A stretch of DNA of 64,000 bases from assembly GCA_958296135.2 (NCBI GenBank), contig CATQHZ020000001.1:2368001-2432000 (forward strand), in the 5' to 3' direction. Made by a program: the position numbers and the translations under genes. This document shows, one piece after another, positions 2,378 to 38,193 of this stretch; positions within the stretch are counted from its first letter, which is position 1; every line of letters starts with the position of its first letter. Origin of the DNA: an uncultured Poribacteria bacterium. Its GTDB lineage: Bacteria; Poribacteria; WGA-4E; WGA-3G. The notes below the pieces were generated by a model, which was given only the letters and a program-made list of their open reading frames with translations, made no database searches and was not told where the DNA came from.

Positions 2378-3520
2378 ATGGAAAAATACGGTATACTATT
2401 ACTCGGCGGCCATCGCACGCACCAAGAAAACTACGCGCCGAATTTCGCGCAAGACGCTCGCTGCCAACTCATCGCATTCGCCGATGAACGGGATGCACCG
2501 GCGGAACGCATCGCATTAGGAAAATCGCTCGCCGAAGAACTGAACCTGCCGTTCATCCCAGATTTGGACGAGGCACTCGCGCGCGACGATGTGCATGTCG
2601 TGAGTCTCTGCACGGAAGTGGAGCGGCGCGGGCGCGTCGGCGCGAAGTGCGCGGAAGCAGGCAAGCACGTTTACCTCGACAAGCCGATGGCACTTAACCC
2701 CGACGATGCAAACCAGATTGTCGCCGCCGTGAAGCGCAGCGGTGTCCGAACGCAGATGTTCAGCAACATCCACAGCCCCTGGGCGCGAAGCGTGAAAGGG
2801 GGATTGGAAAACGGCGAAATCGGCGAACTGCGCGCGATTCACTGCGATGTCCTTTTCTCCAAGGGGCACCCGGGGAGCGCGCCTGTCGGCAAGAAACGAA
2901 TCGAGAAACCGACGGTGGAACGCTATAGTTTCGTTGAAGCAAAGCGCGAGATGTTTGATGTCGGCGTTTACGCGGTATCAATGGTGAATTGGCTCACACA
3001 GAAACCCGTTCAGAACGTCTTCGGTGCAACGGCGAACTACTTTTTCAAGGAGCATCACGATTGCGGCGTTGAAGATTTCGGCGCGCTGATGCTGACGCTA
3101 GAAGGCGGCATCACCGCAACAATCATCGGTGGACGCTACGGGTGGCAGAGTCATGCACGCGGCGGCGTGCAGAAAGTGCATCTCGTCGGCACAGAGAAGA
3201 CGTTGACGTTCGATGCCGCGGCGAACCGTTTGGCGGTATTTGCTGCTGAACCGGCGTTTGAACCGCCGCCACCGCACCCCCTCGATCCGATGGGGATGTG
3301 GAGCAGCACGCAATCTGAAGTTGGGATGCGTCCAAAGCAGGCGTGGATGGATATCGGGAGCGGTGACGACAGCGCGCGGGAATTCAGCGCGTTTATTGAT
3401 TGCATTGAGAACGGCGTGGAGAGTGAGATGAACGCCGAATTTGCGGCGCAATCGATTGAAATTATCACAGCAGGGTATCGTTCCGCGGCGAGTGGGGAAG
3501 TAATCGAAATTCCTCAGTAG
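2378..3520 (+). CDS. Gfo/Idh/MocA family oxidoreductase
   Basis: AGKHVYLDKPMA motif, Rossmann-like N-terminus and GEIGEL linker. Confidence 0.9.
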   Translation: MEKYGILLLGGHRTHQENYAPNFAQDARCQLIAFADERDAPAERIALGKSLAEELNLPFIPDLDEALARDDVHVVSLCTEVERRGRVGAKCAEAGKHVYLDKPMALNPDDANQIVAAVKRSGVRTQMFSNIHSPWARSVKGGLENGEIGELRAIHCDVLFSKGHPGSAPVGKKRIEKPTVERYSFVEAKREMFDVGVYAVSMVNWLTQKPVQNVFGATANYFFKEHHDCGVEDFGALMLTLEGGITATIIGGRYGWQSHARGGVQKVHLVGTEKTLTFDAAANRLAVFAAEPAFEPPPPHPLDPMGMWSSTQSEVGMRPKQAWMDIGSGDDSAREFSAFIDCIENGVESEMNAEFAAQSIEIITAGYRSAASGEVIEIPQ

Positions 3521-3637: not shown

Positions 3638-5473
3638 CTACCCGGTTACTCCTATCGCTTCCAACTCCGCAATCTGTCTCAGCCACGATTCCCGGATTTC
3701 GGGGGAGTAATCACCCGGTAGCAACGATTTTCGGGTGCAATTGACAAACGCCTGCAGAATCTGATACTTCCGAATCGGGCCGATGTTAGGGAGAATCCTG
3801 TCAGAGACGACATCAACGATGTCATCAACAGTCAAGTCGTCTCTCAGATTCTTGGCTGCCTCGAGGTCTGCCCGGAGGGAGGCGAAACTGGCGGCGGAAT
3901 AGCCATCGGTATGTTCTAGCAGCAGTTGCAATGCCGCATCTGGGATAGTTTGATTGAAAACGTTGCGGAGTGTCCAGCGGAGAAACGCCTCCCGGTCTTC
4001 CCCACTCGGGTCAAGCACAGGGATGACGATGTCCCCGACGCGGCCCTCTCGGCGCAAGTCTGGGGAGAGATTATAGATGCGCGCTGTCATCAGCAGCCAC
4101 GTGATGTTGCCGCGCAGCTGCGGATCGGACATCATCGCCTGAATCTTTCCGGTGAGTCGGCGCTCCGTGCTGTGCGCATCTCTACCGACATCACCGAACT
4201 GCGTATCCGCCTCATCAACGAAGATCAGCACCTTTACGAGTGCCATGAGCAACCGCCGCAGCCGTTCAAAAATGACATCTGTCTGTCCAAACCACATGCT
4301 CCGAATGTTTTTCAGCACGAGGACAGGGATATCCAATTCGCCTGCGAGCCCCTCAAAAATAAACGTCTTTCCGCTTCCGATGGGCCCGCAGACGCTGAGC
4401 CCGGAGATGGCATCCGGCCCGGTAGAGGTAATGCGCGGAATAAGGCGCGTCTTGAGAAATTCGACCAGGTTCCGGTTCCCCACGATATCCTTCAGCGTGT
4501 GCTCTGGCTTTTTAAACTCCACCACATCTTCGCCTAACTGCGCTTGGATAAATTCGGAGACCTTCTCAATAACGTGCCCCGGGCGAAGTTTCCCGCCAGA
4601 ATAGCACGCAGCGGCCAGCAGCTGGCGCAACGCTTGTAGCGACAAACCTGCCGTCAGCATGGCAAGTTGCGACTGGGTGCCCCAGAGGTTTAAGGTCTGC
4701 CCCGCGGGTTTTTGCGTTCTATTGAACCACGAGATGAAATGCCGACGCACCTCCAGCTGCGGCGAGGGAATCTCTACACCGATGACCTGGGGGAGCCGCG
4801 TAATTCGCGAATTAACCAGGCTTTTAGACTCCGCAACGAAGACAACCGTATCGCTGGCTTTCATGAACTCTGAATCCGAAATCCAATCCTGAACGATGCT
4901 GACGCGGTGTCTATCCGCCTGACTCAAACTCCGAATCTCGCCCTCGGGCAGCAACATATCGGTTGCCTCGATGATGATGAGCAGCGTCTCCGCTAGCAGC
5001 TTCTCGCCGCGGAGGTTCGTCGTCCGAGAAATCATGCAGAATTGCCGCAGGAGTTCCAAGGCCAGCGTGGGGCTGCCGATCGCATCGTCAAGATAGCGTT
5101 CAAACGTGTCCTCACTGGGGTGGGCATCGAGTGGATATGACTTCTCATAACCGGGGTGGGCATCACGTTCCGGCGCGGCGGCTTGCCGCCATACATTAAA
5201 AGCGGCCTGCAGCTTCTCTCTATCGCTGGCGCGGAGGAAGCGGAGCGGGCCGTTGAGTTCATAGACTATCAGGATAAACCCCGGAATATCCCAACTGCGG
5301 GTAAGGAATTTCACGAGGGGGATATAATCTCCCTGCGCGGCATCGTCAACAAAGAAAAGATCGTGGATATTCCCTGAGAGGACGAGGCTGCGCGAAGTGC
5401 CGGAGTTAATGAGCATGCCTGCCTCGGTCCGGAATTGGTAGTGTGGATTTTTAATCGCCATGATGTTGCTCAC
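3638..5473 (-). CDS. AAA family ATPase (degenerate N-terminal AAA-like domain plus an intact classical AAA domain)
   Basis: Walker A GPIGSGKT, pore loop SMWFGQTD, Walker B IFVDEAD, Arg finger LRREGR. Confidence 0.9.
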   Translation of the reverse strand: MSNIMAIKNPHYQFRTEAGMLINSGTSRSLVLSGNIHDLFFVDDAAQGDYIPLVKFLTRSWDIPGFILIVYELNGPLRFLRASDREKLQAAFNVWRQAAAPERDAHPGYEKSYPLDAHPSEDTFERYLDDAIGSPTLALELLRQFCMISRTTNLRGEKLLAETLLIIIEATDMLLPEGEIRSLSQADRHRVSIVQDWISDSEFMKASDTVVFVAESKSLVNSRITRLPQVIGVEIPSPQLEVRRHFISWFNRTQKPAGQTLNLWGTQSQLAMLTAGLSLQALRQLLAAACYSGGKLRPGHVIEKVSEFIQAQLGEDVVEFKKPEHTLKDIVGNRNLVEFLKTRLIPRITSTGPDAISGLSVCGPIGSGKTFIFEGLAGELDIPVLVLKNIRSMWFGQTDVIFERLRRLLMALVKVLIFVDEADTQFGDVGRDAHSTERRLTGKIQAMMSDPQLRGNITWLLMTARIYNLSPDLRREGRVGDIVIPVLDPSGEDREAFLRWTLRNVFNQTIPDAALQLLLEHTDGYSAASFASLRADLEAAKNLRDDLTVDDIVDVVSDRILPNIGPIRKYQILQAFVNCTRKSLLPGDYSPEIRESWLRQIAELEAIGVTG

Positions 5474-7235: not shown

Positions 7236-8078
7236 TCACAGCGGCAGCTCCGAATCGGCACTCGCCGGCTGCTTTTGGGGCTCGGATTTCTGCGCCGTGG
7301 CGGTGTCAGTCTGCTGTGCACCGAAGATGAGGGAGTCAAATTCATCCGAGGTAGCCGTGGTGCGCGCAGCGGTGAGAAATTCTTCCTCTTCGGTACGCGA
7401 ATCGGTGCCAGCCAGCTCCTGCGCGACTTTCGAGCGTCCCTTCGCCTTCTCTCGAATCTCGCGCATCCGTGCCAATTCCGCGGAGGTGCCGTCCATACTG
7501 ATGCCGGAGAGCATATCGGCGATATCCTCTTGCTCGCGGGCCGTAATCAGATCGGCGACAGCTTCGGACTGCTCCTCTTTAATCTTGCTCAGGTCGCGGT
7601 GGAGCGTGGTTATTTGAAGTTTATGTGCTTCAATATCCTGCTGGGCACGCTCAATATCCGCCTCAAGTTCGGTGACACGCGCGTTTTTCTCCTCCAGCGT
7701 GGAGTGAAAATCGTTGTAGGCAGTGACACAGCGGACGTACTCCGCATGCTCCTTGATTTCGTCGGGAGTCATCCCAGAATTCTGCAGGCCGGTGGCGGTG
7801 CTTTTCGCCTTAGCAATCGCGCCCGACTTCAACTCCTCCAGCCGGCCAATGTCAGCAGTCAGGCTTTTTACCAAACCTTTCTTCTGTTCGACAAGTGCCA
7901 TGAGTTGCCCTATCGCTGCCTTGTAGCGTTGGATGTTCCCCATCTTGTCGTTGATGATGTCTTCATAAGCACCACGCACCGCTTCGGGGTTCTCCATCAT
8001 CCTATCGGCCGACTCGTGCGCGCGGCCGGTAAGCGTATACCAAATCGCTTTGAAAAAACGGCTGATTCCGTTTGCCAT
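7236..8078 (-). CDS. PspA/IM30 (Vipp1-like) family protein
   Basis: Amphipathic N-terminus MANGISRFFKAIWYTL, 'ADRMMENPEAV' matching the PspA D..EDP motif, long coiled coils, 280 aa, GGAGG RBS. Confidence 0.75.
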   Translation of the reverse strand: MANGISRFFKAIWYTLTGRAHESADRMMENPEAVRGAYEDIINDKMGNIQRYKAAIGQLMALVEQKKGLVKSLTADIGRLEELKSGAIAKAKSTATGLQNSGMTPDEIKEHAEYVRCVTAYNDFHSTLEEKNARVTELEADIERAQQDIEAHKLQITTLHRDLSKIKEEQSEAVADLITAREQEDIADMLSGISMDGTSAELARMREIREKAKGRSKVAQELAGTDSRTEEEEFLTAARTTATSDEFDSLIFGAQQTDTATAQKSEPQKQPASADSELPL

Positions 8079-8106
8079 TGTCGTTGTTCCTCCTGTTTTT
8101 CCCCCG

Positions 8107-8168
8107 GTAGGCGCGCGTTCTAAGCGCGCCCGCTCCTCCCTTGGAACACGGTTTCAAAACGCGCCTAC
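8107..8168. repeat. Inverted REP pair (GTAGGCGCG...family)
   Basis: gtaggcgcgcgttctaagcgcgcc followed by an oppositely oriented ...gtttcaaaacgcgcctac. Confidence 0.7.
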
Positions 8169-26288: not shown

Positions 26289-28244
26289 CTACTTTTGCAA
26301 GCGCGGATGTAACCGGCGGACGTTGTCATCCCGAATCGTGATGTTATTGCCATCACACGCCTCTAAAAAAGGCACGGCATATTTTCGCGAGGTGTGTGCC
26401 AACTCGCGGAATTCTGCAACCGTGATGACATCGTGCCGACGAAGATAGTCTGTTAATAATCGGACCGTCTCGTCAAAAACGGTTTTGTGGACGAAGAAAT
26501 TATCGGCGATTTTCACGAACTGCCCCAACTTCACCAACGCAAAAAAGGTGGATTCAATGACGCGAGGTGTCCAATCCGGCAGTTGCAGGACGACTTCCTT
26601 TAGCGCGGGCGTATTGATACCAGCATCAAAAAATAACTGTTCTAACGTTTCCCGCGCTGTCTCTTCTTCTTCAGAAAACTGAATTTCATGCGATGCCAGC
26701 CGAAGCAGGTTACCCTCTTTCACGAGGTGTGCCTCGGCAATGAGCACTGCTGTCAGTTTCTCAAAGCCGACTTCGTCAAGCGCAAGTTGGCGGCGCAGTT
26801 GCGAGGCATTCTGACCGGCGAGAAGGGGCTGCGCCTCGTGAAATGCCGCTAATGCATCTCTTATGCACTGTTTCGCTTCAACTGTGCGCGCCGCATCTGA
26901 GACAAGCGGAATCCGACTCGATACATCCCAGCGAACGATTTTCCCCTCACGCGCTAACGTCGTCAAGATGGCCGTTACCTCCCGCTGTGATTGCGGCAGA
27001 TAGTAGTGGAGAAACGACTCTGGCACGCACAGCGTCGGTATCTGTGCCAACACGGCGTTCACCACCTGTGCATCGTCTGCTTCTTCCCACGCTGCCAACG
27101 TGGCGATAGTTTCTTCCGTGAACCGCTTATGCTTCGGCGCGAACGGGTTGATAACCACACCGCCGCCTACCGTATGTTGCCCAGAAAAATCGCGTAGAAT
27201 CAGTCTATCGCCCCGAAACGTCAAGATAGAACGTTCTAAACGGAGCTGCACCTGAACGGCATCGCCGGGCAGGAGTGCCTCATCAACAAGGAGAATAAGC
27301 CTGCAAAAGACTTCGCATGTGCCGAGGTAAGCGCGAAGCCGCGTCCAATGCTCCAGAATGCGGGGAAAGGACGATAACACCTGCAGGGAAATGTCAATGT
27401 TGTCTGTCACCTGAGAAAACGCCAGCGGGCAGAGGACATCCCCACGCTGAATATCTTGTGCCGAGGTGCCAGACAGATTCAACGCCGTCCGTTGGCCGGC
27501 TGCCGCGGCCGTGGCAGGTTCATTATGCACCTGAATGCCGCGCACCCGCACCGTGTCACCGCGCGGGAGCAACACCAGCCGTTGCTCACGGTTCATCGCC
27601 CCGCCGATAAGCGTGCCAGTGACGACAACACCGAACCCTTGTATCGTAAAGACTCTATCGACATACAGACGAGGAATCCCATCCCCGCTTCCACCCATCC
27701 GGGCATAACCGCGCTCGCGCTTCAAGGAAACCTGATTCACGATAGTCTGCTTCAGCAACGCAATACCCGCTCCCGTGATGGCGGAAACGCTCACCGTGGG
27801 AATGCCCTCAAGCGTCGTCCCGACGAACATCTCCTGCGTCATTTCTGTTGCTTCCGCCAACTCGCTCGGTGTCGCCAAATCGGATTTCGTCATGACGAGA
27901 ATACCGTTTGAAATGCCCAGTAAATCTAGAATAGCGAGATGCTCCAGCGTCTGTTCCTGAACGCCTTCCTTCGCATCGACGACAAACAGCACCAAATCCA
28001 TACCGTAGGCACCGGAAAGCATATTCCTGATGAATTTCTCGTGCCCGGGCACATCAACGATGCCCGCGCGCGAACCGTCCGGCAAGTCAAAGTAGGCGAA
28101 GCCTAATTCAATCGAAAGGCCGCGTTCGCGCTCCTCTTTGAGCCGGTCTGTCTCCATACCAGTAAGCGTGCCGACAAGCGCGGTCTTCCCGTGGTCCACG
28201 TGCCCCGCCGTCCCGATGATGAGGTGTTGTCTGTCTGGATGCAT
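26289..28244 (-). CDS. selB: Selenocysteine-specific elongation factor
   Basis: GTAGHVDHGKT, RGLSIELGF, DVPGHEKF and C-terminal winged-helix SRKYAVPFLE. Confidence 0.96.
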   Translation of the reverse strand: MHPDRQHLIIGTAGHVDHGKTALVGTLTGMETDRLKEERERGLSIELGFAYFDLPDGSRAGIVDVPGHEKFIRNMLSGAYGMDLVLFVVDAKEGVQEQTLEHLAILDLLGISNGILVMTKSDLATPSELAEATEMTQEMFVGTTLEGIPTVSVSAITGAGIALLKQTIVNQVSLKRERGYARMGGSGDGIPRLYVDRVFTIQGFGVVVTGTLIGGAMNREQRLVLLPRGDTVRVRGIQVHNEPATAAAAGQRTALNLSGTSAQDIQRGDVLCPLAFSQVTDNIDISLQVLSSFPRILEHWTRLRAYLGTCEVFCRLILLVDEALLPGDAVQVQLRLERSILTFRGDRLILRDFSGQHTVGGGVVINPFAPKHKRFTEETIATLAAWEEADDAQVVNAVLAQIPTLCVPESFLHYYLPQSQREVTAILTTLAREGKIVRWDVSSRIPLVSDAARTVEAKQCIRDALAAFHEAQPLLAGQNASQLRRQLALDEVGFEKLTAVLIAEAHLVKEGNLLRLASHEIQFSEEEETARETLEQLFFDAGINTPALKEVVLQLPDWTPRVIESTFFALVKLGQFVKIADNFFVHKTVFDETVRLLTDYLRRHDVITVAEFRELAHTSRKYAVPFLEACDGNNITIRDDNVRRLHPRLQK

Positions 28245-28312: not shown

Positions 28313-29098
28313 TCACTCAACCCCGCCATCTTCCGCGCGGATGAGTTTGCCAATGCGCCCGAAACGCACGTTGCCTACTATCTTCCACACTTCCCACGGC
28401 TTCGCCGGACGATTCGCGAAGGACCAGTATACCATGAACGCCTGCCCTTTGATATCCTCCACGTCCACTGGCCCCCACGTCCGGCTATCGCTACTCTGAT
28501 CTCGGTTATCACCCATGGCGAACACTCTCCCTGCCGGCACGATGAACGGTTTCCCATCAGGAAACTTCCGCCGAAACTGACTCGTTGTCAAGGTGTAGTC
28601 CGCAAACGCCTCGTCATCGGGTAGATACGCAGGCTGCCGGAACGGCGGGAAATCGGAGCCGCGCCTGAAATGGGGATGGAACGCCACATGCTTTGCATAC
28701 CCACTATCGTCAATCGGATTACCGTTGACATAGAGCGTTTCGCCGCGCGTCTCCACCGTATCACCCGCAACGGCAACGATGCGCTTGATGAAATTGCGTT
28801 CCCTATCGTGCGGCGGGATGAAGACGAAAACATCGCCGCGCGCCGGCTCGTGGAAATCAAACACCTTGATGTCTGTCCCCGGAATCTTAACTCCGTAGAT
28901 AAACTTGCACACCAAAATCCGGTCGCCGATGAGCAGCGTGTCCTCCATCGAACCCGATGGAATCTTAAACGCCTCCACGACAAATGGACGGATAAAGCCG
29001 AAAACGAGGATAAGTGCAACAACGATGACCTGGGTGTATTCCCAGATGACGGTTTGGCGGAATTTCTGCCACGGTGATAACTGTGTATCGGTATTCAT
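28313..29098 (-). CDS. lepB: Signal peptidase I (paralog 2)
   Basis: IPSGSM, FIKRI and GDNRDQSSDSR motifs. Confidence 0.95.
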   Translation of the reverse strand: MNTDTQLSPWQKFRQTVIWEYTQVIVVALILVFGFIRPFVVEAFKIPSGSMEDTLLIGDRILVCKFIYGVKIPGTDIKVFDFHEPARGDVFVFIPPHDRERNFIKRIVAVAGDTVETRGETLYVNGNPIDDSGYAKHVAFHPHFRRGSDFPPFRQPAYLPDDEAFADYTLTTSQFRRKFPDGKPFIVPAGRVFAMGDNRDQSSDSRTWGPVDVEDIKGQAFMVYWSFANRPAKPWEVWKIVGNVRFGRIGKLIRAEDGGVE

Positions 29099-29129: not shown

Positions 29130-29897
29130 TCAGCGGATTAACTTGCCGACGCGGTCGAACCGGACGGTGCCTACCCATTTCCAGACTTCCCAGAGATGCG
29201 CCGGGTGTCGTGCCGAAAACACCACCATAAACGCTTGTCCCTTGATGTCTTCAACTGCCACCGGCCCCCAAAAACGACTATCGCTACTCATATCCCGATT
29301 ATCGCCCATGGCGAACACCATCCCTGCCGGCACAGTGAATGCGTTTCCCGCCGGAAATTTTCGCCGAAATTGACTCGCCGTCAACGTGTAGTCGGAAAAT
29401 GTCTCGTCATCGGGCAAATATGCAGGGCGACAGAACGGTGGAAAATCCGCAACGCTAAAACGTGAACCCCGCGCAACGTGCTTCGTATAGTCGCTATCGT
29501 CAACCGCCTCACCGTTGACATAGAGCGTTTCGCCGCGCGTCTCCACCGTATCACCCGCGACAGCGACGATACGCTTAATGAAATGATGCGCCCTATCGTG
29601 CGGCGGCAGAAAAACGAAAACATCACCGCGCGCCGGCTCGTGGAAATCAAACACCTTGATGTCTGTCCCCGGAATCTTAACACCGTAGATAAACTTGCAC
29701 ACCAAAACCTGGTCGCCGATGAGCAGCGTGTCTTCCATCGAACCCGATGAAATCCGATACGCCTCCACGACAAACGGACGAATTAAGCCGAAGACCAGGA
29801 TAAGCGAAACGACGATATGCTTGGTGTGTTCCCACGCAAAAATGTGGCGAATTCTCCGCGATAGTGATAAGTGCATGTTTGTATCCATGAATTTCAT
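29130..29897 (-). CDS. lepB: Signal peptidase I (paralog 1)
   Basis: ISSGSM, FIKRI and GDNRDMSSDSR; follows lepA. Confidence 0.93.
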   Translation of the reverse strand: MKFMDTNMHLSLSRRIRHIFAWEHTKHIVVSLILVFGLIRPFVVEAYRISSGSMEDTLLIGDQVLVCKFIYGVKIPGTDIKVFDFHEPARGDVFVFLPPHDRAHHFIKRIVAVAGDTVETRGETLYVNGEAVDDSDYTKHVARGSRFSVADFPPFCRPAYLPDDETFSDYTLTASQFRRKFPAGNAFTVPAGMVFAMGDNRDMSSDSRFWGPVAVEDIKGQAFMVVFSARHPAHLWEVWKWVGTVRFDRVGKLIR

Positions 29898-30110: not shown

Positions 30111-31913
30111 CTATTCGTCCATCTCCAACATCGCCGTGAACGCCTCTTGCGGGATATCAACGCTGCCGATCTGCTTCATCCGTTTTTTGCCCTCTTTCTG
30201 CCGTTCCAACAACTTGCGCTTGCGTGTAATATCGCCACCATAACACTTCGCCGTGACGTTTTTTCGCAGCGGACGCACCGTCTCACGCGCGACAATCTTG
30301 TTACCAATCGCCGCTTGAATCGGCACCTCAAACATCTGCCGCGGAATCAAGGCTTTCAATTTGCTCACTAAGGCTTTCCCGCGGGCATCTGCCACCTCGC
30401 GCGGCAAAATGGTAGAGAACGCATCGACAGGGTTGCCGTTGAGTAGCACATCAAGTTTCACGAGATTCGCCGGTTTGTAATCACCGATGTCATACTCTAA
30501 TGAACCGTAGCCGCGCGTAAGTGACTTGAGTTTCGGATAGAAATCTGTCAACATCTCGCCGAGCGGCAGCTCATAGAGCAGCTGAACCCGTTGGGCATCC
30601 AACTGATTCATCCGTTTATAGACACCGCGCCGTTTTTGGCACAATTCCATCGCATTGCCGATATATTCGCGCGGCACGATGATGTCAATATTGACATGCG
30701 GCTCCTCAATGCGTTCAATGTGATGCAGTTCCGGGAGATGCGCCGGATTGTCAACCCCGATAAACTCGCCAGATTTTAGAGAGACGCGATACATGACACT
30801 CGGCGCAGTACGCACAAGAACCAGTCCAAATTCACGCTCAAGCCGCTCATGGATAATCTCCATGTGCAGCAGCCCCAAGAACCCACACCGAAACCCGAAC
30901 CCGAGCGCAATCGAGGTTTCCGGTTCAAAGTTGAACGAGGCATCGTTGAGACGCAACTTCTCCAATGCCTCCCGCAGCGCATGGAATTGATGCGTGTCAG
31001 CAGGATAGAGGCCGCTAAACACGAGCGGCTTCATCTCGCGGTATCCGGGGAGCGGTATCGGTGTCGGTGTCGCGTGATGCGTAATCGTATCGCCGATTTT
31101 CGCCTTGTCAATCTCTCGTATCCCCGCAATGATGTAGCCAACGGAACCGGTGTGCAGTGCAGCAACCGGTTGCAGCTGGGGCGTGAAGATGCCTACCTCT
31201 TCCACTTCATAGGCGCGCTGCGTCTCCATAAGTTGAATTTTCTGCCCCGGCTCCACGCTCCCATCAAAAACGCGGGTATACATGATAACCCCGCGATAGT
31301 TGTCATAAACAGAATCAAGGACGAGTGCCTTCAGCGGCGCATCGGTTTCTCCCTGCGGCGGCGGAATGCGATTAACGATAGCGGCTAAGATAGCAGGAAT
31401 GCCAATCCCAACCTTCGCGCTGACGAGCAGTGCCTCGTCGCCGGGGATGCCGACGACTTCCTCGATTTGCCGTCTGACTTCATCAGGGCGCGCAGTAGGC
31501 AAATCGATTTTGTTGATAACGGGGACAATCTCCAAGTCATTATCAATTGCGAGGTAGGCGTTCGCCAAAGTTTGCGCCTCCACGCCTTGCGCCGCGTCCA
31601 CGATTAAAATCGCGCCTTCGCACGCGGCGAGACTTCGAGATACCTCATAGGTAAAATCGACGTGCCCGGGCGTATCAATCAAGTTGAGCTCGTAGGACTG
31701 TCCACCCGTGGTGTAGTCGAGTTTGGCGGCGGTAGCTTTAATAGTAATGCCGCGCTCGCGTTCCAATTCCATCAGATCGAGCACCTGAGCGCGCATCTCG
31801 CGCTCAGCGAGAGTGTTGGTGTGTTCAAGGAGCCGGTCGCTCAGAGTGCTTTTACCGTGGTCGATGTGCCCTAAGATACAGAAGTTTCGGATGTTTTTAA
31901 GCGGTTTTGACAT
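30111..31913 (-). CDS. lepA: Translation factor EF-4
   Basis: [30 protein letters not shown] and [14 protein letters not shown]. Confidence 0.98.
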
Positions 31914-31968: not shown

Positions 31969-32130
31969 TTAATCTATTTCCCCAGCCTGCCGCAAAGCAT
32001 CATTAATGACAGCGTCTCCGAGATACATCCCGTTAGCCCGCAGTTCCATCAAAAGGGGTTCAATGACATCAATCAACCCTTTTTGTTCGCCTTCACCAAA
32101 ACTCCCATTGTCCCCGTATCTGTGATGAGC
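31969..32130 (-). pseudogene. DUF3368 (PIN-associated) C-terminal remnant with a frameshift
   Basis: TGTMGVLVKA in one frame continues as QKGLIDVIEPLLMELRANGMYLGDAVINDALRQAGE in another (1-nt loss at gcgaacaaaaa); the N-terminal part is absent. Confidence 0.65.
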
Positions 32131-32349
32131 CGTTGGATGAGCCGTCGGCTGGCGATGACGGGACATTTGCAATTCCGCACGGTGATGCAGGTCCCTTTGC
32201 GCGTCTGTTCTCGGGCCAAATTGGTTGGAAGGCGTGTCTGACTTGGATCTTTCTGAAGTGGCGGTCTGACTGGAAAACAGGGAGAACCTATCCGTGCCGC
32301 TTTCCATAAAAACTTATTTTGAGGCCATCTGGGACAATGTCCTAGATAA

Positions 32350-32571
32350 CTATTTCCGTTGTCGGTTTAATTTTTGGCTGCAGTCGATGGGTTTGTCGGC
32401 TCGGCGAATTGATTCTTCAAGCGAGATGTTTCCGGCATTGTAATCCTCGGAGATCTGGTTCCACGCCGCGGTCATTTTGTTTGGCGGCGGGCATGGTGGT
32501 TCGGTTAAGATGGCGAGCGTGATGAGCGCGAGGATTGCGCCGATGAGGCATGCGATGAGGATGCGGTTCAT
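32350..32571 (-). CDS. Small membrane-anchored hypothetical protein (73 aa)
   Basis: MNRILIACLIGAILALITLAIL anchor or signal; last gene of cassette unit 1. Confidence 0.55.
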   Translation of the reverse strand: MNRILIACLIGAILALITLAILTEPPCPPPNKMTAAWNQISEDYNAGNISLEESIRRADKPIDCSQKLNRQRK

Positions 32572-32657
32572 GGTAGGGAAAGTAATGAAAGGGAGACCCT
32601 GCTGCGGGCAGAATCTCCGCGGCGGGGTTTGGGTGTTGCGCGTGCGGGACGCGCGGG

Positions 32658-33803
32658 TTAGCTGTGATAGGTGTAGATTCTGCGGTTGTGGCGACAAGGA
32701 CCCCAATTTCCGCATCGGGTATACCGTCTGTTACAGCGCGAGCAGGTTCGCAAGACGTGCTTGGCTCGCTCGCCACTGATGCAGGAATAGAAATAGTGGT
32801 TGCATCCTGAGTTGATGCGCGTTCTGTGCGCGTTGGTGGAACTGACGCGGCCGCCTCGTCTACAACTGCTGCCGGCGGGACAGGCGACCGAGGTGTCGGA
32901 GCCGCCGCCGCCACCACCACCACCGTTATTGCTGACAGTGTTGCCGCCGCCGCCGCCGCCGTTAGTGGGGGTGCAGGTATGAGGCGATGCATTGCTACAG
33001 GTCCAGACCTCTGCATTACAAGTGGAACACCTGTCACGATGTGTGCCCTGTCCACTTCTCGCGCAGTGCCACTCGTTTTGCCTGCATCGGCTACAATCCA
33101 CTTGCCAGTGTAGCCCGTTGTTATCTTGCCACCCATCTGTTTCTCCGTAGGAGTTGGCGGCTATTAGTTTTCTGGCGGTACAAGTCCAGATGGTGCTGCC
33201 GCAGCCGGAGCAGGTCTTCGAGTGCTGGGTGAAGTAGCTGACCTCTTTTTTGCAGGAGGGACAGAGGGTGACGGTTTTGACCTCCCAGCTCCAAGTTTTC
33301 GGAACTGCGGTGTCAAAGGCACTGCCCGGATTGTGCATGGAGTCAAGACTACCGCTTGGGGAAAGGATTGTTCTTGACCCTATTGCTGTGACCCGACCTG
33401 AGGCATTTGCAGAGTAGTTTCCATCACTCTTATTGAAGAGGACTTCTGCTTCCACTTTAATCCTTCCTATCCAGGTGCCAAACGGAGTTATTCCGAGCCG
33501 AGCCTCTTTTTGTCGGTTGAAGGGTGTGCCGTCAATGGTTGCAGTCAGATGTGCGTAAACCCATCCGTTGCCTCTGGCGGTACCATGGAGTGTCACCTTG
33601 GCTTTATGCGGTGGCGTGCCGGGCAGAAACGTGGAGAGCACTCTCGGATTCTGGTCTCTCGCCTTTTTATAGACGTTCCCATCGTAAATGTTCGGGACAA
33701 GATAGACGTTGGTTACCGACATCGCGCGGCCCCATGCTTGCCCCAGTCCTGTGAGGCAGAAGAGTGCAAGGAGCACGGTGGTGGTTATCGATTTGAAGAA
33801 CAT
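32658..33803 (-). CDS. Secreted Cys/His-rich protein (cassette unit 1, gene B; 381 aa)
   Basis: AAAGGAGG RBS before ATG 33803; signal peptide MFFKSITTTVLLALFCLTGLGQAWG; several CxxC pairs; poly-Gly linker. Confidence 0.8.
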   Translation of the reverse strand: MFFKSITTTVLLALFCLTGLGQAWGRAMSVTNVYLVPNIYDGNVYKKARDQNPRVLSTFLPGTPPHKAKVTLHGTARGNGWVYAHLTATIDGTPFNRQKEARLGITPFGTWIGRIKVEAEVLFNKSDGNYSANASGRVTAIGSRTILSPSGSLDSMHNPGSAFDTAVPKTWSWEVKTVTLCPSCKKEVSYFTQHSKTCSGCGSTIWTCTARKLIAANSYGETDGWQDNNGLHWQVDCSRCRQNEWHCARSGQGTHRDRCSTCNAEVWTCSNASPHTCTPTNGGGGGGNTVSNNGGGGGGGGSDTSVACPAGSSCRRGGRVSSTNAHRTRINSGCNHYFYSCISGERAKHVLRTCSRCNRRYTRCGNWGPCRHNRRIYTYHS

Positions 33804-33819
33804 AAGGGTTAACCTCCTT

Positions 33820-34578
33820 TTAGGGTATGTGTGGCAGGAGATGGCCGAGGCCGAGCTCCTGATACGCCTTTTTACGGGCCTCATTAACGTATCTCTGATT
33901 GATGGCCTCGATTTCTGCCTCAGACATCTCCACGGGGTACATTCCCCATGCAGAAATGATAGGGAGTCTGCCTTGTGAGGCGCTTTCGAGTTCGTTGAAT
34001 TCATCTTCAAGCCTTCTTACCAGGCTTGTGTCGCCGTTGGCTCTGGCATCGGCGAGTTGTCCCCAAAGTTGGAGATGTCGTTCCCATTGCTCCAGCGTTG
34101 GGGCGAATCCGGTTTGGTATTCAATCTCTATGAAGGGTTGGCCGATTTCAAAGAGAATGGGGTTACCGGATTCATCGCGCATTAGCTCCTCTTCGTCTTC
34201 AAACCGGTACTCGTATCCGTCGGGTGGAGGTTCGACACCGATGCTTTTATAGAACTCGTTGAGAATTCTCAGCCCTTTCCCTGAATAGGGAGAGAGCACG
34301 TTTTCTGCATTCTTTGCAGAAGGTGTGCCTTGTTCGCGTCTAGCTTCCTTATGTTCTGCTGCGTGTGCGACGACTTGTACCTCATGCGGATCGGCGTGCC
34401 ATTCTCCGTTGTGCCAGTGGCCGGCGGTATCGGTTTCCGCTCGGGTCTGCTGTTGCACGACGGGTGGTTTCGGTAGCGATGCATCGAACTTCTGCTTCTG
34501 CCATTCTCCCCAAAAGTAGAGGCCGGTGCAGAAAGCGACAAGGAGTATCGCGCCGGTGGTGAGTTGTCTCAGAGACAT
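33820..34578 (-). CDS. Membrane-anchored GHWH-motif protein (cassette unit 1, gene A)
   Basis: Constant N-terminus MSLRQLTTGAILLVAFCTGLYFWGEWQK...GHWHNGEWH, unique C-terminus, GGAG RBS. Confidence 0.85.
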   Translation of the reverse strand: MSLRQLTTGAILLVAFCTGLYFWGEWQKQKFDASLPKPPVVQQQTRAETDTAGHWHNGEWHADPHEVQVVAHAAEHKEARREQGTPSAKNAENVLSPYSGKGLRILNEFYKSIGVEPPPDGYEYRFEDEEELMRDESGNPILFEIGQPFIEIEYQTGFAPTLEQWERHLQLWGQLADARANGDTSLVRRLEDEFNELESASQGRLPIISAWGMYPVEMSEAEIEAINQRYVNEARKKAYQELGLGHLLPHIP

Positions 34579-34877
34579 GAGGGTTCTCCTTTTGCGCGCT
34601 TGTGGCGCGCGGTTGGTAAACGTTATCTAATCTGATTTTATTGGAAGACGCTTTTTTTTGTCAAGTTTTTTTAAGACAGTTTCGTGTGAGTGTCTTAAAA
34701 ACACTTTCGCAACTGCATATCAAACTTTCAGGGTGCATCGAGACCGGGAGGTCTCTCCTACCGACGTTGTTGAGGTAACTGCGTCAAATTGCGCAGTTAA
34801 AAACAGCGAAAGAACATAGCACGCAACAACGGCGCATGCGGGGCTCTGGCGATAAGCGTCCCTGCCCAGACCACGGT
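34366..34877 (-). repeat. Cassette constant region, copy 1 (leader plus 5' coding part)
   Basis: Near-identical to 35714-36113 and 36830-37325. Confidence 0.9.
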
Positions 34878-35267
34878 TTTCCTGCCGAGGGTCCAGTGAG
34901 GATATAGCCCGACGGTAAGCCAGTTGCCGAGGCGTTCCCCTCTTTTGGACTTCGGGACACTGGTGCCGCCAGATCCGTTAACCAGGCCTACCGTTCCGGA
35001 TACGAGTTTGATAGAGGCTTTCCCCAGTCCTTCGGCGGTGGTGGACGCATGGATGGTAGCGGAACTTGGCTTGTTGGGCGACCAGGTGGTGCTGCCATCT
35101 TGGTGCAGCTCGCGGGTAAAGGTGCCACTGAGGCTGCAACTGATAGAGGTGTTGCTGAATGTCACATCGACTTTTATTCGGCTATATGCGACAAGAGCGA
35201 CGGAAGTAAGGAGGATACAAACGAGGCAGGTAATGAGAATGCCTCGAATGGGTTTGTTTAAAAGCAT
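34797..35267 (-). pseudogene. Secreted protein gene (unit 2, gene B), apparently truncated by the next leader
   Basis: TAATG overlap with gene A; signal peptide; its last codons (TVVWAGTL...RCF*) are read from the repeated leader. Confidence 0.65.
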
Positions 35268-35926
35268 TAGAGTCCTCCTTTACGAGAGCTGCGAGTCCGG
35301 ATGGCGGATTGTGAGACCTTTTTTCCTGTTTTCCTGTCCCGCAATAAGGGTTCGCCGTTTTCGTCCAAGTTCAGGATGCCTTTGCTCGCGTCTTTGAAAC
35401 TGTAGCGGTATCCTTCGGGTGGTAGTTCGAGCCCAAATTGTGCGTAAAACTCTCTATCGAGTTCCTCGATGAATTGCTGTCGCTGTTTGGGCGGCAACAT
35501 ATCCAGGTTAATCCCAACGACGCTTAGATAGTCTAGTTGTCGTTGTGAGAGTTTTTCGGGGTGGAATCCGTCTCTCTTCAGCGTCTGGTTGAGTTCCTCG
35601 ATTTCGCTATCGGTGAGGCGCTCGGAGATATCCACATCGGTGGTTGTGATTCCTGTGGACATATCGCCACTGGTGAGCCATTCGTCACCGTTTGAGGTGT
35701 TGCTTTCGTCTTGTGCGACGACTTGTACCTCATGCGGATCGGCGTGCCATTCTCCGTTGTGCCAGTGGCCGGCGGTATCGGTTTCCGCTCGGGTCTGCTG
35801 TTGCACGGCGGGTGGTTTCGGTAGCGATGCATCGAACTTGCGTTTCTGCCATTCTCCCCAAAAGTAGAGGCCGGTGCAGAAAGCGACAAGGAGTATCGCG
35901 CCGGTGGCCATTTGTCTCAGAGACAT
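35267..35926 (-). CDS. Membrane-anchored GHWH-motif protein (unit 2, gene A)
   Basis: Same ~70-aa N-terminus as 33820..34578, different C-terminus. Confidence 0.85.
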   Translation of the reverse strand: MSLRQMATGAILLVAFCTGLYFWGEWQKRKFDASLPKPPAVQQQTRAETDTAGHWHNGEWHADPHEVQVVAQDESNTSNGDEWLTSGDMSTGITTTDVDISERLTDSEIEELNQTLKRDGFHPEKLSQRQLDYLSVVGINLDMLPPKQRQQFIEELDREFYAQFGLELPPEGYRYSFKDASKGILNLDENGEPLLRDRKTGKKVSQSAIRTRSSRKGGL

Positions 35927-36113
35927 GAGTTCTCCTTGTGCGCGCTCGTGGCGCGCGGTTGGTAAACGTTATCTAATCTGATTTTATTAGCACACGCTTT
36001 TTTGTCAAGTTTTTTAAGACAGTTTCGTGTGAGTCTTAAAAACACTTTCGCAACTGCATATCAAACTTTCAGGGTGCATCGAGACGCGGGAGGTCTCTCC
36101 TACCGACGTTGTT
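35714..36113 (-). repeat. Cassette constant region, copy 2 (leader about 110 bp shorter)
   Basis: Identity with the other copies ends at ...ctaccgacgttgtt, just beyond the REP. Confidence 0.9.
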
Positions 36114-36361
36114 CAGGTAGCGCAGGTAACACTCGTGCTACCGCTTGCTGAGACCAGGAAGTGGTCTAACCAAAAATGAGCACTCTGCGTTTTTTTTGCA
36201 ACATCTAAAGCTGTCTCCGCTCGAGTTAATTGCGGTTCCGTAGTACGGAGCGTAGTCTGGAGCGTAGTGTGTTGCGAATCACAAGGCGCGGTGAATGCGT
36301 CACCGGTTGCAAGCGCGAGGAGCGCGAGAATGAAGATGGGGAGATACAAGGTGTTTTTCAT
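36113..36361 (-). pseudogene. Secreted protein gene (unit 3, gene B), short or truncated
   Basis: ATGA overlap with gene A; signal peptide MKNTLYLPIFILALLALATGDAFTA; the stop falls at the junction with leader copy 2. Confidence 0.6.
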
Positions 36362-37029
36362 TGTTCCTCCCACCTGACTTCGTCCTGTGGTGGGCCTGGG
36401 TATGCTTTCCAGTGTGCTTTTCTCCTTTCATCCCAATCTTCCCGCTTTTGCATGTGTGCCTTTAGTATTTCAGCGGCGGCTAGCCGTTCTTCGTGCGTCA
36501 TGTTGGCGATGCGTTGGTTCCTCTCTGCGATTTGCTTTTTCATCGCTTCGATACCGTATTCATCGCTTATCAGCGGATATGGATCCTCTTGGTCCATTAA
36601 CTCCTCTTCGGCTTCAAGCCTGCATTTTTTTTCGGCCCATGCGCCGTATTTTGGCGCGTGGCGCGCGATGCTTCGGATGACCCGCAACCGTTCGACGTAT
36701 TCCGGTGTTGCGAGGAGTTCCTCTATGGCTGCATCGGTTATTGGCTCAAAGAGTCTCGGCCCGCGCAGCATGGCGAAGTGAACGCCTTCGTCGAGGCCTG
36801 CATTGGCGGGTTGGTGCGTTTCGGTGTGCCATTCGTCACCGTGCCAGTGGCCGGCGGCGGTATCCTCGGTGACATCGCCGGCGGTATCGGTGTCCTGCTG
36901 TTGTTCAACAGCGGGTGGTTTCGGTAGCGATGCATCGAACTTGCGCTTCTGCCATTCTCCCCAAAAGTAGAGGCCGGTGCAGAAAGCGACAAGGAGTATC
37001 GCGCCGGTGGTGAGTTGTCTCAGAGACAT
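36358..37029 (-). CDS. Membrane-anchored GHWH-motif protein (unit 3, gene A)
   Basis: Same N-terminus with a short insertion, GHWHGDEWH, and an unrelated helical C-terminus. Confidence 0.85.
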   Translation of the reverse strand: MSLRQLTTGAILLVAFCTGLYFWGEWQKRKFDASLPKPPAVEQQQDTDTAGDVTEDTAAGHWHGDEWHTETHQPANAGLDEGVHFAMLRGPRLFEPITDAAIEELLATPEYVERLRVIRSIARHAPKYGAWAEKKCRLEAEEELMDQEDPYPLISDEYGIEAMKKQIAERNQRIANMTHEERLAAAEILKAHMQKREDWDERRKAHWKAYPGPPQDEVRWEEQ

Positions 37030-37325
37030 GAGTTCTCCTTGTGCGCGCTTGTGGCGCGCGGTTGGTAAACGTTATCTAATCTGATTTTATTGGAAGACGC
37101 TTTTTTGTCAAGTTTTTTTAAGACAGTTTCGTGTGAGTGTCTTAAAAACACTTTCGCAACTGCATATCAAACTTTCAGGGTGCATCGAGACCGGGAGGTC
37201 TCTCCTACCGACGTTGTTGAGGTAACTGCGTCAAATTGCGCAGTTAAAAACAGCGAAAGAACATAGCACACAACAACGGTGCATGCGGGGTTACGGCGAT
37301 AAGCGTCCCTGCCCAGACCACGGTT
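36830..37325 (-). repeat. Cassette constant region, copy 3
   Basis: Matches copy 1 out to ...cccagaccacggtt. Confidence 0.9.
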
Positions 37326-38193
37326 AGCGAACGCTTTGCGCCAGGACAAAAAACTTGATGCGAGTGAGTGCCTTAAAAGCAGCGATGGCCCGTTCCGTCT
37401 CGCCGAATTCGCCAGCAATCTGACCAATGTATATAAAATCGGAACTTGACATTCCCGCGAGTCGTGCCGAAAGCCCAGTGCTGAGCTCGCAGGTGTCGTA
37501 GGCTTTCAACGCCAATTTCAGACGGAGCTCCCGCTGCTGTTTCCTAAAAGCGACATTTAACCGGCTATGCTCTGTGCAACATGCGGTGCTTGTCAATTGT
37601 GCATGAAAGAGGCAGTGCAGTTCTTCGCCGGAGATACCATTGCTCCTGATGCCCTCGAGTGCCTTTTCGGGGTCCAACATCGCGACGATGTGTGCCGGCA
37701 TCTGGATTCCCACCATTTGCTCAAAATCGGCGATGCTTTCATATCGGGTATGAAACAACGCACGGATGTCCACTCGCAAGAGTGTCGCAACAGTCCAATC
37801 GGCTTTGACTTTCGTCCAATGTCCGAGCTCACACCACGCAACACCACACTGCCCATACGCCAATCCTGCATCTGCATCCAGTTGAATCGCTGCGTAGAAA
37901 TCTTGGGTAGCCTTGTGAACTTCACCTTGGGCGAGGTAAGTACTGCCCCGCTCGGTGTAAACCTCCGCTAGGGCGGGACTTGAACCTAATGCAGGCTGAT
38001 AGTCTTGGAGAGTGTAAATGTCCTCGCCGCGCTGCCGATAAACGGTGCCACGGCGGTAATGCTCCCCGACATAATTCGGTGCCAACCGGAGCACTCTCTG
38101 AGCGTCTTCAAGTGCCTGCTCGTAGTTATCCTTGACGTAGTAATGGTGACTGCGGTGGTAATATGCATCGGCACCATAGGTAGCGAGGGACAT
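37324..38193 (-). CDS. TPR protein with a C-terminal UPF0175-like segment, possibly degraded
   Basis: TPR-like repeats; LKLALKAYDTCELSTGLSARLAGMSSSDFI resembles the UPF0175 HTH. Confidence 0.7.
   Translation of the reverse strand: MSLATYGADAYYHRSHHYYVKDNYEQALEDAQRVLRLAPNYVGEHYRRGTVYRQRGEDIYTLQDYQPALGSSPALAEVYTERGSTYLAQGEVHKATQDFYAAIQLDADAGLAYGQCGVAWCELGHWTKVKADWTVATLLRVDIRALFHTRYESIADFEQMVGIQMPAHIVAMLDPEKALEGIRSNGISGEELHCLFHAQLTSTACCTEHSRLNVAFRKQQRELRLKLALKAYDTCELSTGLSARLAGMSSSDFIYIGQIAGEFGETERAIAAFKALTRIKFFVLAQSVR

Follow-up and report, generated by a model that had tools for sequence, protein, structure and literature searches.

Three tandem members of a Poribacteria gene family share a near-identical 5′ block that was probably homogenized by recombination

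The window analyzed here is a 64,000-nucleotide (nt) stretch (C1:2368001-2432000) of contig C1 (5.01 Mb), part of the 5.19-Mb, four-contig genome of a Candidatus Poribacteria bacterium, an uncultivated sponge symbiont. On its minus strand, three units lie head to tail (unit 1, 37325-36114; unit 2, 36113-34878; unit 3, 34877-32350) in the order leader-A1-B1, leader-A2-B2 and leader-A3-B3-tail, and each opens with a near-identical constant block of leader and membrane-anchor codons that gives way to a divergent payload. The reading that we favor, and consider probable, is that these are three tandem members of a 25-copy Poribacteria family in which ordinary recombination has homogenized the 5′ block, the payloads being divergent. 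The family is new; the evolutionary mechanism acting on it is ordinary, and no new kind of system is involved. An earlier note on this DNA, made from the sequence alone, had proposed an undescribed, self-contained diversification system; that proposal fails, since the units are three of the 25 members of a dispersed Poribacteria family, many of which lack a B gene.

The constant block and recombination between family members

The array and its constant blocks comprise the following features (lengths of proteins in amino acids, aa).

37225..37325 (minus): upstream extension of leader 1; intergenic, right behind the stop of the TPR gene; terminator-like hairpin at 37286-37266; a 95% copy lies in unit 3
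36815..37224 (minus): constant block of unit 1; REP-like element 37178-37212, palindrome 37118-37145, sigma-70-like promoter 37111-37084, hairpin of the 5′ untranslated region (5′UTR) and ribosome-binding site (RBS) 37077-37030, first ~72 codons of A1
36358..37029 (minus): A1, 223 aa; predicted N-terminal signal-anchor, FDASLPKPP, acidic linker, GHWHGDEWH, helical payload
36113..36361 (minus): B1, 82 aa; N-terminus resembling a signal peptide; start codon overlapping the stop of A1 (ATGA), stop codon within the first bases of leader 2
35712..36125 (minus): constant block of unit 2; begins at the REP element, without the 100-nt extension; promoter 36008-35981
35267..35926 (minus): A2, 219 aa; same N-module; payload 84% identical at the nucleotide level to A2′ (538 kb); last ~29 codons replaced relative to A2′
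34797..35267 (minus): B2, 156 aa; truncated B-family gene, whose frame enters the leader-3 extension from codon ~130 (34878)
34364..34878 (minus): constant block of unit 3; A1-type leader with the 100-nt extension, terminator-like hairpin 34839-34819, promoter 34664-34635 with an A8 tract and a spacer of 18, codons 41-72 of A2 type
33820..34578 (minus): A3, 252 aa; canonical member of the family, with full-length relatives among other Poribacteria
32658..33803 (minus): B3, 381 aa; full-length, with signal peptide, beta-rich N-domain, Gly-rich linker and Cys-rich (CxxC) C-terminal region
32350..32571 (minus): tail gene, 73 aa; N-terminal transmembrane (TM) helix

The three head-to-tail units with a near-identical front block, as first described in the earlier note, were borne out by a repeat search and self-BLASTN (repeat families D1-D5). 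Positions 34420-34878 matched 36877-37325 over 459 bp (94.3%), 34364-34777 matched 35712-36119 over 415 bp (94.9%), and 35768-36119 matched 36877-37224 over 355 bp (92.7%), with E-values of 0 to 1e-148, far above chance. The constant block is 355-459 bp long and 93-95% identical, and includes 40-72 codons of the membrane anchor. A three-way alignment showed the block of unit 2 to be ~100 nt shorter at its 5′ end, the ~100-nt extension being common to units 1 and 3.

All the parts ascribed to the block in that note (leader, REP, palindrome, promoter, hairpin, RBS and a TM anchor with GHWHxxEWH) were found. The REP-like element has a 28-nt core forming a GAGACC/GGTCTC hairpin and occurs in 276 genome copies at ≤4 mismatches (134 plus, 142 minus), which often occur in small groups. 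Its copies in the window lie at 37178-37212, 34731-34765 and ~36085-36119, with further starts at 2275, 2308 (+) and 40862 (-), and it sits exactly at the 5′ edge of the constant block in three of five close copies. The palindrome TTAAGACA-N12-TGTCTTAA (8-N12-8) matches exactly in units 1 and 3, and none of 100 shuffles matched. A promoter-like TTGACA-N16/16/18-TAAAAT (11/12 positions) occupies the same position in all three units, and the 5′UTR contains a GC hairpin within a longer helix that reaches the Shine-Dalgarno region (fold z-scores of -3.3, -2.6 and -2.7), followed by AAGGAGA and then ATG. No Rfam family matched 32000-37600 in permissive E-value mode. Transcription would start at the three sigma-70-like promoters, whose activity is a prediction. 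As judged from the sequence, every unit carries a complete set of putative expression signals and a coupled downstream open reading frame (ORF), and because each has its own predicted promoter and start codon, none would be a silent cassette.

A second copy of part of the array lies at another site on the same contig. Positions 35355-37218 (leader 1, A1, B1, leader 2 and most of A2) matched C1:537907-539757 at 88.4% over 1878 aligned bases. The gene order at this 538-kb locus is A1′-B1′-A2′-tail′, with the tail gene matching at 88.6%; relative to it, the window has an extra ~2.7 kb (~32665-35354) consisting of a new A2 3′ end, B2, leader 3, A3 and B3. In 60-nt windows, identity between the two loci was 93-100% across leader 1 and the A1 N-terminus (37219-36862), 27-87% across the A1 payload (36861-36385) and 88-100% across the A1 end, B1, leader 2 and two thirds of A2 (36384-35488), and fell off in the rest of A2 (below 35487).

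By the Nei-Gojobori method, codons 1-40 showed no synonymous differences between A1 and A1′ over 29 sites, nor between A2 and A2′ over 28. The payloads of the same pairs had a synonymous divergence (dS) of 0.54 with dN/dS 0.70 (A1/A1′) and 0.30 with dN/dS 0.62 (A2/A2′), the proportion of synonymous differences (pS) being 0.25-0.39. Given the payload pS, the estimated chance of zero changes at ~29 synonymous sites is ≤2e-4, and the absence of synonymous change over 40 codons is strong evidence for conversion. The non-coding leader is similarly uniform, with 217/218 positions identical between A1 and A3 and 216/219 between A2 and A2′.

Several copies are mosaics. The leader and 100-nt extension of A3 are of A1 type, with codons 41-72 of A2 type (0 synonymous differences, 1 non-synonymous), and a copy at 1113 kb has an A1-type linker joined to an A2-type payload. 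Over 114 shared columns, the A1 payload is 60.5% identical to a copy at 4932 kb and 46.5% identical to its positional counterpart A1′. Diagnostic leader variants are spread as a mosaic among five copies. Adjacent segments also conflict in a second subfamily of ~275-aa proteins: for upstream 150 nt/codons 1-45/payload, percent identity was 50/93/98 between the genes at 4934013 and 3567, and 96/97/68 between those at 4934013 and 4934961. Read from sequence, these comparisons show a family whose members appear to have repeatedly undergone gene conversion or unequal recombination, not by way of a dedicated machine. The earlier note had inferred recombination in the constant block, and this part of it stands, given dS 0 vs. 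0.30-0.54, the mosaic leaders and the incongruent second subfamily.

The mechanism we propose is that general homologous recombination, presumably by a RecA-type route, keeps copying the block between members through gene conversion and unequal crossing-over. The homology used would be the block itself and the REP element at its 5′ edge, and no dedicated machine would be needed. The payloads would be older and themselves swapped in patches. In concerted evolution, as two sources describe it, the resemblance between paralogs, or between parts of them, exceeds what divergence elsewhere in the gene predicts, and homogenized tracts are sharp-edged (PMC8223754, PMC6053082). The array displays both the contrast in dS and conflicting adjacent segments; unlike in plain concerted evolution, homogenization is limited to a 5′ regulatory and anchor module, and payload patches are exchanged, so that shuffling occurs too. 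An uncultivated sponge symbiont would here offer a clean case of a 5′ regulatory-plus-anchor module under recombination, with homogenization and payload shuffling in one genome.

A dispersed Poribacteria family and its A proteins

We defined the N-module of the A proteins as a TM helix followed by (Y/W)xEWQKxxFDA(S/A)LPxPP; the family grouping is our own. Searching the genome by tblastn and with a hidden Markov model of the N-terminal 45 residues gave 25 ORFs at E≤1e-2, with A1-A3 scoring 93-97 bits. Fifteen of them fall into five tandem clusters, namely the window (3 members), 537.8-539.6 kb (2), 4932.5-4936.9 kb (5), 4950.0-4952.7 kb (3) and 2.1-3.6 kb (2). No B gene accompanies ten of the 25, all tandem A genes and among them the five-gene array at 4932-4937 kb. 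The second subfamily (~275 aa) occupies C1:4932508-4936866 (5) and 4950033-4952747 (3), likewise without B genes, and many of its members have GHGKPDGDWKP in place of GHWHxxEWH. Its array members have payload twins of 95-98% identity at C1:3567, 4919173 and 3558054, behind different upstream sequence.

Outside this genome, relatives of A3 in a species-level genome collection amounted to nine loci in three records, all of them Candidatus Poribacteria metagenome-assembled genomes. An A3-type profile run against 1.84 billion cluster representatives matched 272 at E≤1e-3, 167 at E≤1e-10 and 36 at E≤1e-30. Numerous matches span positions 1-75 only or 100-246 only, so the N-module and the C-domain are separable; some N-module proteins have TPR repeats as their C-terminus. 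The analysis thereby defines a Poribacteria-restricted family that has no database name (25 copies here, 272 cluster representatives in public data). A literature search on family expansion in Poribacteria, not of a kind that could establish the family as undescribed, returned nothing relevant, and "unnamed" here means absence from Pfam and NCBIfam. Should these envelope proteins engage host or phage, the family would be a candidate for variability of the symbiont surface or periplasm.

A1-A3 are near-identical at positions 1-39 and all contain GHWH(N/G)(G/D)EWH; between A2 and A3 the likeness extends to residue 72. AlphaFold2 modeled A3 (7-sequence alignment, mean predicted local distance difference test (pLDDT) score 73.9) as a helix at 3-34, disorder at 39-96 and a confident alpha/beta domain at ~100-250. 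With this model, Foldseek found no match in the PDB at E≤0.001. The best VIA-align hit in wide mode (Z 7.6) was confined to 46 residues in a helical hairpin and fell in the background range of that tool, and no fold was assigned; the best look-alikes in the ESM Atlas (0.78) were unnamed Verrucomicrobiota clusters, under the useful range.

Payload distributions differ from gene to gene. We searched 30 relatives (numbered from G001, with G000 as the symbiont's own genome and L-numbers for loci or records of relatives). The A1 payload has three copies, all in its own genome (0/30 relatives). The A2 payload has weak relatives in 6/30 genomes; it overlaps the PPxGYxY...NGxP part of the A3-type domain and weakly matches the first half of that domain (E 1.5e-4). 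The payloads had been called largely unrelated: their divergence is confirmed, and the weak resemblance of the A2 payload to the A3-type domain means that not all of them are unrelated. In distant genomes, A proteins have a different TM anchor and the same C-domain.

The A N-terminus is best read as a signal-anchor and not as a lipoprotein or outer-surface signal, because the helix begins after only 3-4 residues, no lipobox is present and the Cys is missing from the relative P0003. As judged by eye, the V-A-F or L-A-L preceding that Cys does not fit the lipobox consensus; a lipoprotein reading was dropped on this ground. A TonB-like reading, suggested by the N-anchor and the Pro-rich/KP-EP linker, was dropped as well, with no TonB_C match in the Pfam scan. 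The A proteins would be bitopic in the inner membrane, with a signal-anchor helix, a juxtamembrane EWQKxxFDASLPxPP, the acidic/His-rich GHWHxxEWH linker and a variable C-domain facing the periplasm.

Some family members adjoin genes for extracytoplasmic function (ECF) sigma factors. In record L038 (PYJE01000068.1), an ECF sigma gene (L038:1885-2493; TIGR02937, 69 bits against a cut-off of 42.9) lies directly upstream of an A3 ortholog. Together with the remnants and distant A-like genes given below, this suggests an ancestral link of the family, or of its ancestral module, to ECF sigma signaling. Protein scans of the window found no ECF sigma gene adjoining the array. A cytoplasmic anti-sigma domain was not found in A: the TM helix starts at residue ~3-5 and leaves no room for one, and there was no Pfam match. 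Remnants of ECF sigma genes occur upstream of A-family genes at C1:463551-463649 and L045:4688-4831, and two distant A-like genes (C1:2024359-2026419 and 2502434-2504721) stand in the order sigma factor, small secreted Cys-rich protein, A-like gene, with the sigma gene intact.

Programmed envelope variation would account for the same architecture in another way, and we consider it unlikely. It would combine a portable leader, ON/OFF switching by poly(A) slippage and payload exchange with twins, as in vlp/vsp or pilE/pilS. The predicted promoter spacers do hold a poly(A) tract (unit 1, 37090-37106, A6; unit 2, 35987-36003, A6; unit 3, 34641-34659, A8), with spacer lengths of 16, 16 and 18 nt in leaders that are otherwise near-identical; other copies have A6 (A2′) or A7 (A1′ and the copy at 2266). 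For every member of the 4933-4937 kb array, a payload twin exists elsewhere behind another upstream region, and mosaic recombination is demonstrated. There is also precedent in mycoplasmas, where, according to one source, vsp of M. bovis and vpma of M. agalactiae have a conserved 5′UTR and N-terminal coding region before unrelated coding sequence, and expression of M. hyorhinis vlp is switched by indels in the -35/-10 spacer (PMC2268961). With these systems, as described there, the array shares clustered paralogs, a conserved 5′UTR and N-terminus ahead of unrelated coding sequence and, in the case of vlp, a feature in the spacer, here a poly(A) tract of 6-8 (PMC2268961). It is likewise doubtful that the REP-bounded block of promoter, 5′UTR and anchor serves as a recombinase-independent expression adaptor, with poly(A) slippage switching units on and off. 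If it did, adaptor and slippage would together produce a heritable combinatorial repertoire of envelope proteins and Cys-rich secreted partners, for example against phage or host recognition, and the array would be a free-standing analogue of mycoplasma-type variable-protein systems in an uncultivated diderm phylum.

Tracts of A6-A8 are short for efficient slippage, however, and contigs collapse variation, so that length and structural variants within the population are unobservable. With a promoter and start codon in all units, there is no silent-versus-expressed arrangement, and the predicted signal-anchor would place the payload in the periplasm of a diderm, not on its surface. Unlike the mycoplasma vsp/vlp genes, those of the array encode signal-anchored proteins without a lipobox, have a promoter per unit and a coupled secreted partner, and have no recombinase family adjacent (none of the site-specific kind among the flanking ORFs). 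Vsp and Vlp proteins typically contain internal tandem repeats; a repeat test in the window found none of note in the A payloads. The Borrelia ospE/ospF/erp family, reportedly defined in work by Marconi in 1996 and Sung in 2000 through an upstream homology box (UHB), is another likeness, its paralogs having a common conserved upstream box before divergent genes and mutation and recombination being said to create variants. The UHB genes are lipoprotein genes on the cp32 prophage plasmids of a pathogen, whereas the array is chromosomal, encodes signal-anchored proteins, belongs to a sponge symbiont and has its shared block bounded by a REP element.

Purifying selection on regulatory and anchoring function after old duplications, with no conversion, could also keep a block alike. 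The functional-looking promoter, operator-like palindrome, structured 5′UTR and TM anchor within the block would suit this account, as would the conservation of the N-module protein motif across Poribacteria. We nevertheless find it decidedly unlikely: selection on protein cannot yield zero synonymous changes over 28-29 sites against a payload pS of 0.25-0.39, and the diagnostic variants of the leader are distributed as a mosaic. The leader also looks young. In a DNA search of the whole array against the relatives, the coding parts of the N-anchor and the tail matched over 75-187 nt (longest match 187 nt, 67%; best-scoring match 186 nt, 80%, in G001). The 100-nt extension had one match in each same-genus genome (87 nt and 96 nt; 77%), the remaining matches being REP copies. 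The non-coding leader had no match in either same-genus genome except REP copies, and would therefore be young and not anciently constrained.

The A-B operon and its products

Under our favored reading, each unit would be a small operon that starts with a near-consensus sigma-70 promoter and a structured 5′UTR and RBS and continues with an A gene and a translationally coupled gene for a secreted B. Coupling can be read from the sequence as an ATGA overlap in A1/B1, a TAATG overlap in A2/B2 and a 16-nt spacer with AAGGAGG in A3/B3. Unit 3 (A3-B3-tail) would be the ancestral conserved module.

The pairing of A and B recurs beyond the window. A B profile matched 6/30 relatives, and an ORF matching the A profile ends 8-20 nt before a B ORF at six distinct loci in five genomes (G001, G002, G004, G007 and, with two, G008). 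In this tally the duplicate records L038/L060 and L045/L061 were each counted once, and a B match at a contig start in G014, whose upstream sequence is unreadable, was excluded. Orthologous A3-B3 pairs are 30-45% identical across genera. In L038, the ECF sigma gene is followed in order by orthologs of A3 (42% identity), B3 and the tail gene, and further tail relatives lie after A2′ (537353-537553) and after the A2-like gene at 1113 kb (1113918-1114013). A3-B3-tail thus appears to be an ordinary conserved operon, and the A-to-B pairing appears old. This conserved two-gene module of a membrane-anchored A and a secreted Cys-rich B is unnamed in databases. In another genus, locus L062 of G004 (691-1479, 1495-2073 and 2648-3418) has a tandem A-B-A′ arrangement in which the A N-termini are near-identical to each other and of a type unlike that of the window.

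B2 is a truncated member of the B family. Its residues 38-132 align at 60% identity with residues 37-134 of P0158, a 359-aa homolog (E 5e-36). The match ends at the start of the leader-3 extension (34878, codon ~130), and the last 26 residues of B2 are leader sequence. Because the match stops where the extension begins, the event that placed an A1-type leader before A3 would have removed the rest of B2. The earlier note had held gene B to be complete only in the last unit and had called for a full-length donor of the truncated genes: B2 is truncated, with P0158 as its full-length relative, and B3 is full-length, and B1, which has no relative outside the genome, may or may not be complete. B1 is not a member of the B family; its sole paralog is at C1:538671-538916 (0/30 relatives). 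It looks like a young orphan ORF, which may be fast-evolving or not a real gene.

B3 has seven database relatives, one of which is the window's own protein; they are secreted and have the same beta/Gly/Cys layout. Its AlphaFold2 model (8 sequences, mean pLDDT 38.3) was too low in confidence for use. Prediction of a complex between the A3 C-domain and the B3 N-domain scored 0.01, which gives no answer and counts neither for nor against binding. An A3-type protein would act with the secreted Cys-rich B, perhaps together with the tail protein, and the joint function of A and B is probably envelope-related.

A constant N-terminus, a variable C-terminus and a tightly coupled downstream gene with a signal peptide, in tandem units of which one has a truncated downstream gene, are also what polymorphic effector-immunity or bacteriocin-like modules would display. 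A would then be a membrane-delivered effector, B a secreted immunity protein and the truncated B a displaced leftover, and the fast evolution of the payloads (dN/dS 0.62-0.70) would fit. Polymorphic toxin/immunity arrays (CDI, Rhs, Maf) likewise combine a constant N- and a variable C-terminus with a small linked gene and tandem orphan or truncated modules. We regard this account as highly unlikely. Neither A nor B matched a toxin, immunity or defense family in Pfam, NCBIfam or PADLOC, and A1-A3 yielded no recognized toxin C-domain or trafficking N-domain above threshold in these databases, though an unrecognized toxin fold is possible; the N-terminus is a single TM helix and not a secretion trafficking domain. 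Unlike in CDI, Rhs and Maf arrays, each unit has a promoter and start codon, which also sets the units apart from orphan toxin/immunity cassettes, and it is the downstream gene that is truncated. A3 and B3 are orthologous across genera and not swapped between strains, B (381 aa, Cys-rich) exceeds A in size, and ten of the 25 members stand as tandem A genes without B. The effector/immunity, adhesin and antigenic-variation roles suggested at first gained no positive evidence: there were no toxin or defense matches, and the N-terminus reads as a signal-anchor.

Assembly, genomic site and neighboring genes

Public sequence with this DNA comes from four runs of one sample and study, none of them RNA, in the form of short-read contigs. 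Word depth over the array payloads equals that of the single-copy flanks (~40-47 for both in run X1). Short-read contigs bridge B3-A3 (32635-34393) and the B2/A2 junction (34849-35536). The listed contig joints that run through REP or leader have 20-33 nt on the short side and were treated as repeat ambiguity; as real rearrangements they were dropped, the anchoring being only that long and inside the repeats. That the array is an assembly artefact, with dispersed paralogs collapsed or chained at the repeat, is barely credible: the short-read contigs do end at constant blocks and many joins through REP and leader are ambiguous, but the window lies inside a 5.01-Mb contig, each unique payload segment has flank-like depth, contigs connect B3 to A3 and span B2/A2, and the 538-kb locus repeats the A1-B1-A2 order.

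Several points nonetheless weigh against reading the array as family members homogenized by recombination. The short-read contigs all break at constant blocks and no record spans a whole unit boundary, so the unit order depends on the long assembly itself. One genome of this species was compared, and the recombination events are undated. Part of the block's conservation could stem from selection on a regulatory or export signal common to the copies, or from nucleotide constraint near the start codon, and promoter activity and membrane topology are both predictions. A, B and the tail protein have no Pfam, NCBIfam or PADLOC family above threshold, and the A3 domain has no match among solved structures. 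B1 differs from its paralog by 10.5 non-synonymous and 0.5 synonymous changes over 82 codons, few changes that are not significant by a rough estimate.

At the site itself, the array is flanked downstream by lepA (30111-31913), two signal peptidase I genes, selB and a lipoyl synthase gene, and upstream by a TPR protein gene (37324-38193), a 3-keto-disaccharide hydrolase gene (DUF1080), a phosphodiesterase (PDE) gene and others. The same-genus genome G002 (L071) has PDE, DUF1080, TPR, a REP-rich spacer of ~660 nt and lepA, with no match to A, B or tail at that place; its homology with the window is interrupted from 32055 to 37433. In G004 (L072), the DUF1080 hydrolase gene directly adjoins lepA with nothing between, and G001 (L070:4249-7989) has an Eco57I-type restriction-modification gene at the site (PF07669, 121.7 bits). 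The interval from the 3-keto-disaccharide hydrolase gene to lepA forms a variable islet, and among the genomes searched the array is lineage-specific. It would represent a lineage-specific insertion of 5.3 kb between the TPR gene and lepA. A copy of the REP-like element is present in the "empty" site of G002 (L071:336-362).

Scans of 14 flanking ORFs (25197-46114, ~7 kb around the array) found no integrase, transposase, recombinase or reverse transcriptase (RT) family, in agreement with the earlier note, which had seen no integrase, transposase or RT adjacent. Parts of a diversity-generating retroelement (DGR; RT with template repeat) or of an integron (integrase with attC) were also absent from the ORFs of 25197-46114, the whole genome not having been searched for RT. 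DGR-type mutagenesis was dropped: the copies differ by indels and whole-segment replacement, with no RT nearby.

Three smaller observations concern the neighbors. The TPR protein has a C-terminal UPF0175 match below threshold (25.1 bits vs. the Pfam cut-off of 27.9), and its last ~36 codons are unlike those of the G002 ortholog. The 3′-terminal ~35 nt of its gene, together with the ~100-nt terminator-bearing spacer (37225-37360), are themselves a dispersed repeat, with copies of 82-84% identity at C1:11659-11766, 8019-8116 and 3794-3870, one of them just upstream of a family member (ATG at C1:3567). On the other side of the array, the two signal peptidase I (S26) genes are tandem paralogs directly downstream of lepA (28313-29098 and 29130-29897), followed by the gene for a SelB-type selenocysteine elongation factor (26289-28244).

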